Below, piece by piece: positions 23,654 through 62,920 of a stretch of DNA of 64,000 nt (position 1 is the stretch's first letter; each line of letters starts with the position of its first letter). The stretch comes from a virus (lineage: Duplodnaviria > Heunggongvirae > Uroviricota > Caudoviricetes). A program made the translations under genes and the position numbers. Below the pieces are notes generated by a model that ran no database searches, was not told the origin of the DNA, and was given only the letters and a program-made list of their open reading frames with translations. The stretch spans positions 290,948-354,947 of the IMG/VR virus record IMGVR_UViG_3300021979_000001. The stretch is one strand, 5' to 3'.

Positions 23654-23730
23654 TGGCGATCCCTGCTGGATTCGAACCAGCAACCTACAGATTAGAAGTC
23701 TGTTGCTCTATCCAGTTGAGCTAAGGGACC
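23654..23730 (-). tRNA. tRNA-Arg(TCT)
   Basis: GGTCCCT/AGGGATC acceptor, ACAGA-CTTCTAA-TCTGT anticodon arm, TTCGAAT T-loop, CCA. Confidence 0.96.
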
Positions 23731-32452: not shown

Positions 32453-33519
32453 AACGAACGTTTACATTTATCGTAGATCACAAAAAGTTTATGGTATGTG
32501 TATGTTTTAATACTGATACTCTTATTTTAAATTCGGTAATGATAACTAATCCAGATGATCAGTTTAAAATCGAAATTGACAATGATTGTGATTATAATTT
32601 AGTTACCAATAATAAAATCACACCATATAATATATTATACCGGGAAACAACTTATAATTATCTGCCAGATTTCCCGGTTGAAATACATGATACTATTAAT
32701 ACTATATACGAACTTTCTGAATTAAATGTATGTTGTATATCAATTTGGTCGTATTTACATTATTATCTTGAAACGGATAAAGTGAAATCGATTGAGATAT
32801 ACCAAAATGTAAATGGCACAAACATCCCAATTAATAAAAAACCAGTTTCATATATAACATATGAAAACAAAAATGATTATGGGTTCTATAATATCAATCC
32901 TACCGACAGCGTTGAGGCAATTAAACTCTGTGGCATGTTTCCATCTAATTTACGCATTTTAGATATAATTATGTATATAGACATGGAAATTGAACATGTC
33001 GCGAATGGTAATGATTCAACCGCGTTTCCCACATGGTTCCTTGCCGAAAATTATACCCATGCATTCACCAAGATTTTAGATGATTTTGCCAAGGAAAATA
33101 ACACATTCATTGTGATGCTGTGTGATGCGAAATTATATTGTGATATAAATTTATTTACGGATATTACCCAACTGTTTTTGGATAATTTTAGTGAGCCAGA
33201 AGATATTGCATCTGATTACAATAAATCAAAGAAAAAATCAGATAAAATACTATATCAATTGACATTAGAAAAATCTTATACAAACACTGATGACGTGATT
33301 AATAAACTGGCAGAACTTGGATACCAGTATGAATCCCGTTATATAGAAGATTTTGATATATATCACGCGGGAATATTACCAGCCTTAAAAACAGTTGATG
33401 TTTATGTGATTTCCTTATTAACGCCTACATTATCATCGTCATTACCAGTAGTGCGAAATATCACAATGTTAACGCACGATAGTGAGTTATACACGATGCT
33501 AAAATTAATATATGGGTGA
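32449..33519 (+). CDS. expanded paralog family protein
   Basis: 356 aa; LDDFAKENNTFIV; ends YTMLKLIYG. Confidence 0.75.
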   Translation: MKRTFTFIVDHKKFMVCVCFNTDTLILNSVMITNPDDQFKIEIDNDCDYNLVTNNKITPYNILYRETTYNYLPDFPVEIHDTINTIYELSELNVCCISIWSYLHYYLETDKVKSIEIYQNVNGTNIPINKKPVSYITYENKNDYGFYNINPTDSVEAIKLCGMFPSNLRILDIIMYIDMEIEHVANGNDSTAFPTWFLAENYTHAFTKILDDFAKENNTFIVMLCDAKLYCDINLFTDITQLFLDNFSEPEDIASDYNKSKKKSDKILYQLTLEKSYTNTDDVINKLAELGYQYESRYIEDFDIYHAGILPALKTVDVYVISLLTPTLSSSLPVVRNITMLTHDSELYTMLKLIYG

Positions 33520-33576
33520 TATTGCTGCTGAAATATGCCGATGAAATCCCAGGATCACCATTAAAGGGGCGCAATC

Positions 33577-34569
33577 ATGCCGAAATATCAGTTTTCATTT
33601 AAAAGTGACAACGATGAAATCAAAATAAAGTTATGGTCTAAACAAAATATAGCTAATTACAACAACGATGTGACTAATAAAATATTACCTATAATTAATG
33701 ACATAGAAAACCAATTTGGTATTAGAGTATACTCGTCAAATAATATGATCTATAGTGGGGTAATATCATGTAATGTTATGACGTCGGAAATCACATCAGG
33801 TGTATTACGAATTATAGAATATTATTTTGGGAATGATTTCTGGCCGAAGAAATTAAAAGATAATCCTAATATTTCACATACCCTCACTTTTTATCAAAGC
33901 GTCGAACTTCTTTTTGGTATTATTAACAAATATACTAATGATTATTATAAATTTAAAATACTCAATAAAAAAGAAATTTTAACCGAAAAATATAACTCAA
34001 GTTTTTTACAATCATATCCTACTATTACAATAGAAAATAATAACTTAATACATTATTATTCTGGTCTGCATTTTACTAATCCAGTGCCGTGTTTGAAAAA
34101 TTATACCTTGGTTAATATCCATAGAATATTCACAAACACGTCAAATATATTATTGAGACAAGTGTCACAACAATATAAACAATACTTCTATGATAATGTA
34201 TTAAACTTTGCTAATGATAAAAATACTGAAATATATTGGTTCTGTGATCATATTTTTGTGAAAAATGAATTTGTTGATGATTTTTTGAACATGATTAATA
34301 CCTATTGGGTAACCGAGATTCCTGAACCATGGGTATTTAGTTTTTCAATCACGGGGGAGTCTGCTATTGAAATTAATGAGTATTGCCAAATTATAGAGGA
34401 CTCTGAATTGAAATGCGAAATGATATATAGCTACCTTAGAAGCAATTATTATTATATAGGTAATATACCATCGGATGCAGATGTTCTAATATACAAATGC
34501 ACAAACAGCGTTTATTTTTTTGTAAAAGATGCAGCTACCTGGACATATCTTAAATTGATGGAACGCTGA
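33577..34569 (+). CDS. expanded paralog family protein (EYxFG subgroup)
   Basis: 330 aa; IIEYYFGND; FAND.NTEI...INTYW; ends FFVKDAATWTYLKL. Confidence 0.75.
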   Translation: MPKYQFSFKSDNDEIKIKLWSKQNIANYNNDVTNKILPIINDIENQFGIRVYSSNNMIYSGVISCNVMTSEITSGVLRIIEYYFGNDFWPKKLKDNPNISHTLTFYQSVELLFGIINKYTNDYYKFKILNKKEILTEKYNSSFLQSYPTITIENNNLIHYYSGLHFTNPVPCLKNYTLVNIHRIFTNTSNILLRQVSQQYKQYFYDNVLNFANDKNTEIYWFCDHIFVKNEFVDDFLNMINTYWVTEIPEPWVFSFSITGESAIEINEYCQIIEDSELKCEMIYSYLRSNYYYIGNIPSDADVLIYKCTNSVYFFVKDAATWTYLKLMER

Positions 34570-50246: not shown

Positions 50247-51350
50247 TTAATCAATTATTGATTTGATTGCATAGCCATGGCTATTGCCACCAGAAGCCGC
50301 AGACCAGTCAGTATCCGTTCCGATTTGGGTCCAGGATGATCTGTTACTATTACCATAACTACCTATTTGACCATCACCACCATAACCAATACCCCAAATG
50401 GTCCCATCCGACTTAATTGCATAGCCATGATTGCCGCCACTTGCAACAGATACCCAATTAGTATTTGTCCCGATTTTTGTCCACGATGACTTATTTCCAG
50501 AACCACCTATTTGACCATAAATATTATAACCAATCCCCCAAATGGTCCCATCCGACTTTATTGCATAGCCATGATATGTTCCACCAGAAGCCAATACCCA
50601 ATCTGTATCGGTTCCGATCTGTGTCCACGATGACTTATTCCCAGAACCACCTATTTGACCAAAATTATTGTAACCAATCCCCCAAATAGTGCCATCAGAC
50701 CTAATTGCATAACCATGAATGTTACCACTCGAAACAGATACCCAATTAGTATTCGTCCCGATTTTCGTCCAAAATGACTTATCACCCGAACCACCTATCT
50801 GCCCAACATTATTAGAACCAATTCCCCAAATAGTGCCATCAGACCTAATTGCATAACCATGACTATAACCACCCGAAACTGATGCCCAATTCTTATTCGT
50901 GCCAATTCGGGACCAGTATGATCTTCTACCAGTAAATCCAAGCTGACCAGAACCGCTATCACCAATACCCCAAATGGTCCCATCCGACCTAATTGCATAC
51001 CCATGATTGCCACCGGCAGAAACCGATGTCCAATCATTATCGGTTTCAATTTGTGTCCACGATGACTTATTCCCAGAACCGCCTATTTGACCATAATTAT
51101 TGTAACCAATGCCCCAAATAGTGCCATCCGGTTTAATTGCATAACCATTATTATTAGAACCACCGGAAATAGATGACCAATCATTATCAGTTCCTATTTG
51201 AGACCACAGTGTCTTATTCCCAGTCCCACCGATTTGACCATAATCATTAGAACCAATACCAAATACCGGGTGTTTTATTGTTTCAAAATTATTTTTTCCA
51301 ATGGTAATATTTAAAAAATGTTTCAGATTGTTTTTTACAACTACGCCCAT
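50247..51350 (-). CDS. RCC1-repeat beta-propeller protein
   Basis: about seven ~48-aa repeats W.SVSGG..HGYAI.SDGTIWGIG.N.YGQIG. Confidence 0.9.
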   Translation of the reverse strand: MGVVVKNNLKHFLNITIGKNNFETIKHPVFGIGSNDYGQIGGTGNKTLWSQIGTDNDWSSISGGSNNNGYAIKPDGTIWGIGYNNYGQIGGSGNKSSWTQIETDNDWTSVSAGGNHGYAIRSDGTIWGIGDSGSGQLGFTGRRSYWSRIGTNKNWASVSGGYSHGYAIRSDGTIWGIGSNNVGQIGGSGDKSFWTKIGTNTNWVSVSSGNIHGYAIRSDGTIWGIGYNNFGQIGGSGNKSSWTQIGTDTDWVLASGGTYHGYAIKSDGTIWGIGYNIYGQIGGSGNKSSWTKIGTNTNWVSVASGGNHGYAIKSDGTIWGIGYGGDGQIGSYGNSNRSSWTQIGTDTDWSAASGGNSHGYAIKSIID

Positions 51351-51382
51351 AATAGTTCTATACCCAATACAAATGTTTGGTT

Positions 51383-52486
51383 CTATTTATCACTTATTAT
51401 TTTTCTAATCCCATAGCCATAATTATTGCCACCGGAAACATATAACCAATCATTATCGGTTCCGATTTGCGTCCAGACTGATTTATTTCCAGTTCCACCT
51501 ATTTGATTATAGTAATTATTACCAATGCCCCAAACGGTTCCCTCGGATTTAATTGCATACCCATGATTACTACCACTCGAAACCGATAACCAATCATTGT
51601 TGGCTCCGATTTGCGTCCAGACTGATTTATTTCCAGTTCCACCTATTTGTTTAGCAGCATTATACCCAATACCCCAAATAGTCCCATCAGATTTAATTGC
51701 ATAACCATGATTGTAACCACTTGATACCGACACCCAATCTGTATCGGTTCCGATTTTTGTCCAGGATGATTTATCCCCAGTCCCACCTAGTTGACCATAA
51801 TTATTGTAACCAATTCCCCAAATGGTTCCGTCTGACTTAACTGCATAGCCGTGCATATACCCGCTTGAAACAGATACCCAGGTATCAACTGTTCCAATTT
51901 CTGTCCATGACGATTTATTGCCGGAACTACCTATCTGACCATAATAATTGTAACCTATGCCCCATATTGTCCCATTGGTTTTGATTGCATAACCATGAGC
52001 ATAACCACCCGAAACCGATACCCAATCGGCATCTGTCCCGATTTTTGTCCAGGATGATTTGTCACCAGAACCGCCTATCTGACCAAAAGTATTGTAACCA
52101 ATTCCCCAAATAGTGCCATCAGACTTAATTGCATACCCATGATTGCCACCGGCAGAAACCGATGTCCAATCATTATCGGTTCCAATTTTGGTCCAGGATG
52201 ATTTGTCACCAGAACCGCCCATTTGCCCATATCTATCAGAACCAACACCCCATATGGTCCCATCGGACTTGATTGCATAGCCATAGTTGCTACCGGCAGA
52301 AACTATTAACCAATCATTATCTGATCCAATTCGGGTCCAGGATGAAACATTATAATCGGCATAACCGATCTGACCGGAATCATTAAAACCAATGCCGTAT
52401 ATAGGATACCGTATCGTTTCAAAATTACTTTTTCTAATGGTAAGATTTAAAAAATGTTTCAGATTGTTTTTTATAACTGCGCCCAT
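51383..52486 (-). CDS. RCC1-repeat beta-propeller protein (tandem duplicate)
   Basis: same repeat and length (367 aa); duplicated upstream region with ATAAATA at 52520-52526(-). Confidence 0.9.
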   Translation of the reverse strand: MGAVIKNNLKHFLNLTIRKSNFETIRYPIYGIGFNDSGQIGYADYNVSSWTRIGSDNDWLIVSAGSNYGYAIKSDGTIWGVGSDRYGQMGGSGDKSSWTKIGTDNDWTSVSAGGNHGYAIKSDGTIWGIGYNTFGQIGGSGDKSSWTKIGTDADWVSVSGGYAHGYAIKTNGTIWGIGYNYYGQIGSSGNKSSWTEIGTVDTWVSVSSGYMHGYAVKSDGTIWGIGYNNYGQLGGTGDKSSWTKIGTDTDWVSVSSGYNHGYAIKSDGTIWGIGYNAAKQIGGTGNKSVWTQIGANNDWLSVSSGSNHGYAIKSEGTVWGIGNNYYNQIGGTGNKSVWTQIGTDNDWLYVSGGNNYGYGIRKIISDK

Positions 52487-53633: not shown

Positions 53634-54623
53634 TTATATCATCCCAATCAGTTGTTTTACATCAGCCAATGTTTTATTGGCGATAGTTGCGGCCCGCTCC
53701 GAACCATGGGCTAAAATCTGGGAAACCCATTCCTGATCATTATCCAGACGTTTTTTATTAGCCTGGATTGGGGCAAGATGTTCAACTAATGAATCGGTTA
53801 GGTCTTTTTTAAAAGTGGAGAACATTTTCCCACTGTATTCGACTAACACGGTTTCCATATTGGTGCCGGTGATAGCAGCATACATTGCAACCAGATTTTT
53901 CGCTTCTGGGCGTCCTTCCAGGCCATCCAGGTGACTTGGTATCGGGTGCGCGTCGGTCTTCGCCTTGCGGATTTTAACAGCAATAGTATCGGCATCGTCA
54001 AACAGGTTAATACGAGACCGGTCATTAGGTGCAGATTTTGACATTTTCTTGGTGCCATCGATTAATGATTTCACCGAGGTCATATTTCCTAATACCGGGT
54101 TTGGTAATTTGAAATAGGATGTCTGGTATTCATTATTGAACCGAGACACAATATCTCGGGTCAATTCGATGTGCTGGGTCTGGTCGCTACCAACCGGAAC
54201 GTGTGTTGCATTGTAAAGTAAAATATCCGCTGCCATCAAACTAGGATAAGCATAAAGGCCAAGCGATGCATTTTCACGATGTTTACCCGATTTGTCTTTG
54301 AATTGCGTCATACGGTTCAACCAACCGATACGGGCAACACAGTTAAATATCCACGCCAGTTCGGCATGAGCGGAAACCTGGCTTTGGTTAAACAGAATGT
54401 GTTTTACCGGATCAATGCCCGACGCAATCAGGGTGGTTGCAAGTTCCCGAATATTTGTGCGCAATTCGGATGGTTTCTGCGATATGGTAATAGCATGCAT
54501 ATCCACTACGCAGAAGATACACTCGTTATTACTTTGTAAGTCAATCCAGTTACGGATTGCACCAAGATAATTACCAAGATGAATATTGCCGGTAGGCTGA
54601 ATACCGGAAAAAATACGGTTCAT
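53634..54623 (-). CDS. trpS: tryptophanyl-tRNA synthetase
   Basis: [15 protein letters not shown] (HIGH), [33 protein letters not shown]. Confidence 0.96.
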
Positions 54624-61501: not shown

Positions 61502-61663
61502 AAAACCACCCTGTGCATATCTGTTTGGATTTGATTAGTTAATCATAAAATGGTCCGTGATGGAAATGTTTTTTTCAAAATCAATTTGGTAACGCGGGAT
61601 CATAACAACAAAAGCCATAATAACAGAATGATTATGTTTCACTCTGTCATTATGGCTTTTTAA

Positions 61664-61738
61664 TGGCTCCGGCAGTAGGATTCGAACCTACGGCCCCCTG
61701 ATTAACAGTCAGGTGTTCTACCGCTGAACTATACCGGA
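61664..61738 (-). tRNA. tRNA-Asn(GTT)
   Basis: TCCGGTA/TGCCGGA acceptor, CCTGA-CTGTTAA-TCAGG arm, G73, CCA. Confidence 0.96.
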
Positions 61739-61744
61739 ATATAA

Positions 61745-61821
61745 TGGTGGCGGGAGTAGGATTTGAACCTACGATCTCCGGGATATGAACCCGACGAGTT
61801 ACCAAACTTCTCCATCCCGCA
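61745..61821 (-). tRNA. initiator tRNA-fMet(CAT)
   Basis: 1:72 mismatch (T:C), three G-C pairs in the anticodon stem TCGGG-TTCATAT-CCCGG, CCA. Confidence 0.92.
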
Positions 61822-61827
61822 TCAATA

Positions 61828-62710
61828 AGAAACCCGTGAGATTACCGGGGTTTATAATGGGCCTTTCCGAACATTACCGATAACTTGCGATTATCGTTCT
61901 TTCGTTATCCATGCCACGTGATTGCAGCATATCCCATTAGTGTCGCCTTTTTTAGTGAGTGGCAGTTCTCACATCATTGAATTGTCCTCGACCGATTATC
62001 CCATACCGACACTTATAAATGCCGTTCGCGTTGCTACACGCTATACCAGATTACTGATCAATAGTCCTTAGATTTGCGATCTTTAGACTACCCATTTTCT
62101 CATAGAGAATGGGATTAGACACCTTTCCAATTCAACTGGGACAGTCTTTTGCGTTTTTTGCGGAATCGAACCGCCGAAGCAGATTAGAAGTCTGTTGCCA
62201 ACCATTGGCTATTGAAAAAATCACTGTCATGCGCTGTCCCAAGTTGCTTCATCACCGCTTTACAGTGACAAAATACAACGCATCACGTTCCGTTCGTCTT
62301 GCTAGACTACTAAGACTATATTTTGGATATTGTCAGTTCCCCACCAAAATCCTCATATATGCAAACCGCTCTTAGGTGCAACCCTTCGAACTTATTTTGC
62401 TATCCATTATGTTTCATGATGAACGATTTAGCGTTGTATAGATGATCTGCTACAATCATTTAGCAATCAGCATACGCCATCTTGCCTATCTTTTCAGCCA
62501 TACATTCGTTTTCTCACTAGACACCACGTTAATGATGTCACCTTGTGGGCAACACTGGACCTGCATAGATGTGCCAAAATAAATTGGTGAAAGTGCGTGA
62601 CTACTCTCTTTCAGTCTATTACTAGACTATATACTAATGACGCTATGCCGCCATAGAGAACCACACACAAGGAATGTCATAGACAAACCATACATGGTGG
62701 CTCAAAACTT
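61828..62710 (-). ncRNA. GOLLD-like giant structured ncRNA (boundaries approximate)
   Basis: ~0.9 kb ORF-free; many short helices (GTCT-AGCA-AGAC, CGTGT-AGCA-ACGCG, CGATAA..GCAA..TTATCG, GACATCA/TGGTGTC); 3' hairpin loop GTAATCTCA can pair with upstream TGAGA; abuts tRNA genes; family assignment from recalled features only. Confidence 0.65.
62151..62224 (-). tRNA. degenerate tRNA-Arg(TCT)-like element embedded in the large ncRNA
   Basis: D arm GCCAATGGTTGGC, anticodon arm CAGA-CTTCTAA-TCTG, T arm GCGG-TTCGATT-CCGC, T6/A6 acceptor-like stem, no CCA. Confidence 0.65.
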
Positions 62711-62827
62711 TTTAGTCTGAATGCTTCAAAAGGCACAGTTGCTATACCAGGGGGGACATTGGCGATTACGGGGGGAGTAAATCGCCGCAACTGTGCCCAT
62801 TGAAACACTCAAACAGTTCATATTCAA

Positions 62828-62839
62828 TTGTCAAAGAAC
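62828..62839 (-). promoter_or_regulatory. rrn-type boxA antitermination element
   Basis: GTTCTTTGACAA on the minus strand, ~45 nt after the predicted start of transcription. Confidence 0.6.
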
Positions 62840-62891: not shown

Positions 62892-62920
62892 GTTATAGCC
62901 TGCTACGAAACTACTGTCAA
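62892..62920 (-). promoter_or_regulatory. near-consensus sigma70 promoter for the ncRNA/tRNA operon
   Basis: TTGACA-17 nt-TATAAC with an A-rich UP-like tract upstream. Confidence 0.8.

Follow-up and report, generated by a model that had tools for sequence, protein, structure and literature searches.

A GOLLD RNA gene with a tRNA-like linker element and a predicted rRNA-type leader in a probable alphaproteobacterial jumbo phage

The locus lies near one end of a 64,000-nt stretch of DNA (the window; positions 290,948 to 354,947 of virus record IMGVR_UViG_3300021979_000001). It consists of a large structured RNA, two tRNA genes and the elements predicted to control them, in transcriptional order:

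62892-62920, minus strand: predicted sigma70-type promoter, TTGACA-17-TATAAC (sequence pattern), with an A-rich tract upstream at 62965-62925
62818-62839, minus strand: boxA-type element, identical at 22 of 22 nt to a Neorhizobium rRNA leader
62715-62814, minus strand: leader cassette, two hairpins with C6 loops closed by a long stem (folding z -9.8)
61833-62654, minus strand: GOLLD RNA, full length about 822 nt (RF02032 match, homologue-defined 5' end, covariation)
62287-62654, minus strand: GOLLD 5' domain, outside the Rfam model (alignment; two covarying pseudoknots)
61833-62286, minus strand: conserved GOLLD 3' domain with linker, model positions 1-416 (RF02032)
62137-62241, minus strand: 8-bp pseudoknot bracketing the linker (covariation, helix 13)
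62151-62224, minus strand: tRNA-Arg(UCU)-like element in the variable linker (relaxed ARAGORN score; weak Rfam tRNA-clan score of 27.1 bits; cloverleaf fold; blastn)
61745-61821, minus strand: tRNA-Met(CAU) of initiator type (tRNA search; 1:72 mismatch, A11-U24, three G-C pairs at the base of the anticodon stem)
61664-61738, minus strand: tRNA-Asn(GUU) (tRNA search)
61604-61658, minus strand: hairpin resembling an intrinsic terminator, with a U-rich tail (fold prediction)

GOLLD RNAs are large phage RNAs that build hollow RNA-only cages (PMC12286853, PMC12990946). The Rfam GOLLD model, RF02032, matched 61833-62286 on the minus strand over its whole length with 177.9 bits (E 2.4e-48; gathering score 150 bits). 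This was the one copy that the Rfam search detected in the 457-kb phage genome, and a search of 14 control genomes with the same model returned no match. RF02032 models only the 3' part of GOLLD, and relatives were therefore gathered by DNA patterns from viral, metagenome and genome collections. Forty-four non-redundant full-length copies, 811-892 nt long, were aligned; the conserved span runs from a first hairpin at 62654 to 61833. A preliminary description had proposed a GOLLD-like RNA at 61828-62710. Its 5' end was wrong, the RNA measuring about 822 nt rather than 883. The RNA stops 11 nt from tRNA-Met, in keeping with the proposed position a few nucleotides ahead of tRNA-fMet and tRNA-Asn, and the sequence motifs listed in that description all lie where it placed them. 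The region was also correctly said to contain no credible ORF: the single frame of at least 50 aa is an 88-aa antisense frame with no Pfam match. ORFs flanking the region contained no Pfam families, and in a blastn comparison with cultured phages the flanking tRNAs alone matched.

The RNA has further features of GOLLD: a length of about 800 nt, a structured and less conserved 5' domain, a variable linker between P14 and the 3' core, covarying pseudoknots and a phage context near tRNA genes. Because the full model is matched above its gathering score and covariation extends across homologues, the stretch is almost certainly a GOLLD RNA gene belonging to the known family, and the new relative offered earlier as an alternative was not upheld. 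Weak profile matches of the 5' domain to other GOLLD types over only the first 50-100 positions, together with the missing blastn match, might point to a new class merely resembling GOLLD or to a chance structured intergenic region. Such a reading is scarcely credible against the full-model match, the 14 empty controls and the strong covariation, and for the 3' domain it is already refuted. Variable 5' domains are moreover known in GOLLD (PMC12286853), and the related RNA of phage phiCbK is included in a published GOLLD alignment.

The region folded more stably than shuffled sequences (z -4.35). Across the 44 relatives, 114 pairs in 21 helices were paired in 97.5% of cells, and 81 of these pairs changed on both sides. 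The covariation score was 0.54 (shuffles, 0.19; slid partners, no more than 0.09); the helices were picked from a scan of the same alignment, so these totals are biased upward and the evidence that counts is the compensation within each helix. Covariation supports four pseudoknots (62648-43/62568-63 and 62600-597/62224-21, both listed above with the 5' domain, 62241-34/62144-37, and 62123-18/61944-39), each 97-100% paired with 3-5 compensated pairs. The third of these is the 8-bp core of a longer pairing proposed earlier between CAACTTGGGACAG and CTGTCCCAGTTG; the core is real (97% paired, 3 pairs compensated), but the flanks sit in other covarying helices. Two further proposed pairings fell away. 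CCTTGTG (62666-72) lies upstream of the RNA and is folded into a local leader hairpin, and its match to CACAAGG is at chance level because the region holds 33 such 7-bp complements, compared with about 25 in shuffles. A pseudoknot between the terminal loop and TGAGA (61967-71) was rejected: it was 53.6% paired with no compensatory change, and TGAGA makes up one side of the local hairpin 61972-68/61959-55, in which 5 of 5 pairs are compensated. Following the cryo-EM text, the terminal loop could pair with GGAU at 61910-07; these four pairs are invariant and prove nothing.

Two GOLLD cages have been solved, env-38 as a 14-mer (PDB 9MEE; PMC12286853) and the Streptococcus agalactiae RNA as a 12-mer (9L0R; reviewed in PMC12990946). 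The window RNA resembles them in its match to the whole 3' model, its length (about 822 compared with 833 nt), the position of its linker, the pseudoknot across that linker, the adjoining tRNA-Met and its encoding by a phage. Its first hairpin, by eye, is also similar to the start of the env-38 construct. Unlike both, it has an extra hairpin in the last 3' stem, a 5' domain from a different sequence subfamily and one kissing loop with a palindromic AU sequence where they have GC; the env-38 linker is unstructured, whereas that of the window RNA is a tRNA-like element. Positions bridging subunits in env-38, mapped by eye, correspond to a GNRA-type loop (62624-62617), A-rich loops near 62262 and 61954, a GC in the linker end and in the loop at 62078, and self-complementary loops at 62035 (GC) and 62018-62013 (palindromic UUAUAA). 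This last loop (minus strand) is a GC self-kissing loop in relatives and could here preserve the half-shell contact with other bases. By homology to the solved GOLLDs, the RNA would assemble into a hollow cage of 10 to 14 subunits with the linker inside; the linker of the solved GOLLD points into the cage interior (PMC12286853). We consider cage formation likely. ROOL (RF03087) is likewise a large phage RNA found near tRNAs that forms cages. It differs in that its covariance model gave no match in the window or the phage genome, the genome search having no scoring positive control.

The preliminary description found the RNA and overlooked the linker element, the promoter and the boxA leader. 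TTGACA-17-TATAAC-type sites occur 4 times in the phage genome and boxA-like elements 3 times. The promoter was missed by a promoter scan because the scan demands a -7T, a base that alphaproteobacterial promoters typically lack (PMC7703639). Of the 37 relatives whose flanks were long enough, 26 carry a promoter-like site, compared with 1.6% of shuffles, and 18 combine it with a boxA 56-83 nt downstream (0.09% of shuffles). The 22-nt boxA match in Neorhizobium stands about 185 nt before the 16S gene, and in Nitratireductor 20 nt match at the same place. An exact 15-nt boxA pattern was found three times in 151 alphaproteobacterial genomes, never before a 16S gene and once before a CRISPR-like repeat (L360, about position 1500, minus strand); with so few exact matches, the likeness to rRNA leaders rests on two rhizobial replicons.

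The stem of the leader cassette is possibly a processing stem of RNase III type. No homologues of the C6 cassette were detected by blastn, pattern scan or Rfam, and at this position some ten relatives carry a long stem enclosing another insert. In those relatives (L028, L063, L069, L125, L157, L164, L186, L246, L255 and L289) the stem follows boxA 100-250 nt upstream of GOLLD, and the inserts are variable and structured, some of them including T-loop or tRNA-like portions; in L289 a pair of these cassettes lies in tandem. The cassette itself, a very stable three-way hairpin (62715-62814, minus strand), might be excised from the leader as a small RNA, and pairing of its C-rich loops with Shine-Dalgarno sequences is speculation.

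Taken in order, promoter, boxA, GOLLD, tRNA-fMet, tRNA-Asn and terminator form a predicted unit of about 1.28 kb that appears to be organised like an rRNA operon. The leader of bacterial rRNA operons comprises a promoter, boxB and boxA and is bound up with a Nus-factor complex (PMC5725501). The predicted leader resembles it in that boxA has the rhizobial sequence and follows the predicted start by about 50 nt; in many relatives boxA is also preceded by a hairpin and followed by a long stem. The predicted leader would differ in driving a phage non-coding RNA and tRNAs. Host RNA polymerase would transcribe the non-coding unit from the promoter, boxA would recruit host Nus factors as in rRNA operons, and processing would free GOLLD and the two tRNAs at high level during infection. 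Expression of this rRNA-like kind is, judged from sequence, likely. A literature search on GOLLD together with boxA found no paper linking them.

The phage record is 457,165 nt long, is rated complete and encodes about 20 tRNAs. Its gp23-type capsid protein is 74% identical to that of Sinorhizobium phage Phosso and 65% identical to that of Agrobacterium phage Atu_ph07. The genome also carries a permuted alphaproteobacterial tmRNA (G000:C1:160176-160509, L361:677-1010) with the tag ANDNVASNMAVAA. Genome size, capsid kinship, tmRNA and rhizobial-type boxA support the earlier assignment to a probable alphaproteobacterial jumbo phage. Elsewhere in the window, a tryptophanyl-tRNA synthetase-like gene (53634-54623, minus strand; PF00579) has best phage-collection matches annotated as tryptophan--tRNA ligase, and 50247-52486 (minus strand) encodes two tandem 367-aa paralogues, with RCC1 repeats in the one tested.

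Related phages carry GOLLD as well. The Phosso copy (PV764938.1:33150-34001) scored 186.6 bits with RF02032 and belongs to the same subfamily, with an Arg(UCU) mimic in its linker. It is distant from the window RNA (just 72 bits by nhmmer) and differs in having no boxA match and no flanking tRNA. In the Phosso record this GOLLD (L139:1117-1970, corresponding to 33149-34002) is unannotated, and gene number 80 is skipped there. Atu_ph07 gave no GOLLD match with RF02032. Caulobacter phiCbK-like phages (JX163858.1, JX100812.1) have a GOLLD of the same subfamily in which the linker elements are annotated as tRNA-Gly or tRNA-Lys. Apparently the same GOLLD is found in phages DSS3_MAL1, Cp1R7A-A1 (Mesorhizobium) and MD18 (Phaeobacter) (L366-L368), where the linker element is annotated as tRNA-Arg or tRNA-Leu. 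Further GOLLDs lie on contigs of one gammaproteobacterial and one Rickettsiales metagenome-assembled genome (L330, L331), possibly phage contigs in those bins.

The linker element of the window RNA has its anticodon at 62188-62186. It retains the D arm with the D-loop GG, the T arm and T-loop, and a 7-nt anticodon loop with U33 and a purine at 37; the acceptor stem is degenerate. At 62198-62180 it is identical over 19 of 19 nt, by blastn, to the phage's own intact tRNA-Arg(UCU) at 23654-23730. With neither a 7-bp acceptor stem nor a CCA end it lacks what a functional tRNA has, and it scores below the ARAGORN default and Rfam cut-offs. The window copy is more decayed than most (folding z -0.35).

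About four-fifths of 117 distinct linkers contain a tRNA-like element, and roughly one in five could not be parsed. In 65 non-redundant elements the T-stem pairs were kept in 61-64 and the D-loop GG in 63, a retention partly imposed by the parser. The parser placed no condition on the acceptor stem, in which pairs 7:66 to 4:69 were 78-92% paired with several pair types, and pairs 3:70 to 1:72 were 43-57% paired. In the alignment of full-length copies the anticodon stem was 94% paired with 4 of 4 pairs compensated. CCA was present in 8 of the 65 elements, and a few relatives have a near-complete acceptor stem with CCA. Because about four acceptor pairs remain and CCA is mostly missing, most linker elements of the subfamily, as read from their sequences, cannot be working, chargeable tRNAs. 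That GOLLD linkers contain tRNAs has been published (PMC12286853, PMC6582537, PMC12990946), and mycobacterial GOLLD likewise has a tRNA or pseudo-tRNA within the linker (PMC6582537; PMC12990946 citing Morgado 2020). What differs here is that a family-wide pattern was measured: a short acceptor stem, no CCA and a variable anticodon with a U36 bias. Outside the 2009 discovery paper and Morgado 2020, a literature search found no report of such a pattern.

The anticodons of the linker elements vary (GUU, CUU, UUU, UCU, UAU and others). On an 85-tip tree built without the linker the anticodon changed at least 42 times, and U36-A37-A38, a t6A determinant, was mostly kept. Changes at positions 34, 35, 36, 37 and 38 numbered 29, 18, 12, 13 and 8. 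Paired stem positions changed 13-31 times, and compensated stem change took 16-31 steps. Positions 36-38 are thus constrained, and the counts give no sign of acceleration at position 34; since change at the wobble position (29 steps) was no faster than compensated stem change, positive selection is not supported. U36 was present in 42 of 56 mimic loops, compared with 388 of 1063 true tRNAs of the same loci (36.5%); the nominal P of 2e-8 is overstated since the sequences are related, and the bias may partly be ancestry. Many mimic loops are non-canonical, with 8-nt loops, G33 or A32. Seven sites separate the RNAs of Caulobacter phages phiCbK and Magneto; 5 of them are adjacent, lie in the mimic anticodon loop and probably arose through one exchange event. 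The five-base difference lies at 1022-1026 in Magneto (L363) and phiCbK (L364), for which GenBank gives tRNA-Lys and tRNA-Gly respectively; the phiCbK loop is non-canonical (G33, U37).

We tentatively favour the view that the linker element acts against host nucleases that cut tRNAs, as their decoy or inhibitor, because the mimic keeps the parts that nucleases read (anticodon arm, D-loop) and has lost what translation needs. The cage would be an abundant, stable and multivalent carrier of a non-chargeable tRNA mimic. The mimic would engage proteins of the host that recognise tRNAs, defence nucleases that cut tRNAs being the most plausible targets, and translation in the infected cell would thereby be protected. 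The tRNAs targeted by PARIS AriB and PrrC have U36, and AriB makes contact with the D-loop as well (PMC12409363). Several points stand against a decoy. A decoy on an inward-pointing linker (PMC12286853) would be hidden unless cages open; the tRNA-like element is missing from some relatives, and in Atu_ph07 no GOLLD was matched. The known phage answers to tRNA-cutting nucleases are cleavage-resistant working tRNAs, not decoys (PMC10264068, PMC12409363). Arg(UCU) is not among the commonest targets of AriB, the window copy is more decayed than most, and many loops are non-canonical.

About as likely as a decoy is a function in the cage itself, for instance in storage or in the binding of cargo such as ribosomes; the tRNA in the linker would then be a captured passenger, a compact and tolerated filler with a drifting loop. 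The absence of the element from env-38 and some relatives and a cited ribosome pull-down (both PMC12286853) are consistent with this, as are the decay of the window copy and a loop that changes at about the rate of compensated stems. A mere filler fits less well with the retention, in most linkers, divergent as they are, of D-loop GG, T-loop and stem pairing, with the lower rate of change of U36-A37-A38 than of positions 34-35, or with five adjacent loop substitutions between near-identical phages. Next in likelihood, and on balance improbable, is an elbow and anticodon handle that docks GOLLD on the ribosome or on tRNA-processing or -modifying enzymes (RNase P, the t6A machinery), serving control of translation or processing of GOLLD RNA. 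The elbow nucleotides are the best-kept part, U36-A37-A38 is retained, rRNA-like expression would match ribosome numbers, and ribosome binding is cited (PMC12286853); on the other hand, G33 and 8-nt loops in several copies make poor decoding loops, the mimic has no CCA end, and expression of the mycobacterial linker pseudo-tRNA was undetected (PMC6582537). An 'inhibited storage' of tRNA, later excised for translation, has been proposed (PMC12990946) and would suit the few relatives with a near-complete acceptor stem and CCA. It is very unlikely here: most copies, the window's included, have neither a 7-bp acceptor stem nor CCA, and the phage already owns an intact tRNA-Arg(UCU).

We give the whole chain, from rRNA-style expression through cage formation to a decoy mimic that protects translation, a probability of about 0.35. 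Extended to the subfamily, it is doubtful that its GOLLDs are counter-defence RNA-only cages made at rRNA-like levels through a borrowed boxA leader, with a non-chargeable mimic on every subunit and exchangeable anticodon loops matched to the tRNA-cutting immune nucleases of the host.

As a sequence, the window copy is one more GOLLD, and its value lies in the question of what GOLLD does. In this subfamily most linker 'tRNAs' are mimics that cannot be charged, whose elbow is conserved and whose anticodon loop can change. Several GenBank annotations of tRNA-Gly, tRNA-Lys or tRNA-Arg in related phages probably denote this element. Cultured systems for functional work exist in Phosso on Sinorhizobium meliloti and in phiCbK and Magneto on Caulobacter; the latter two are a natural allele pair, differing almost solely in the mimic loop. 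If true, the counter-defence reading would provide the first function for GOLLD.
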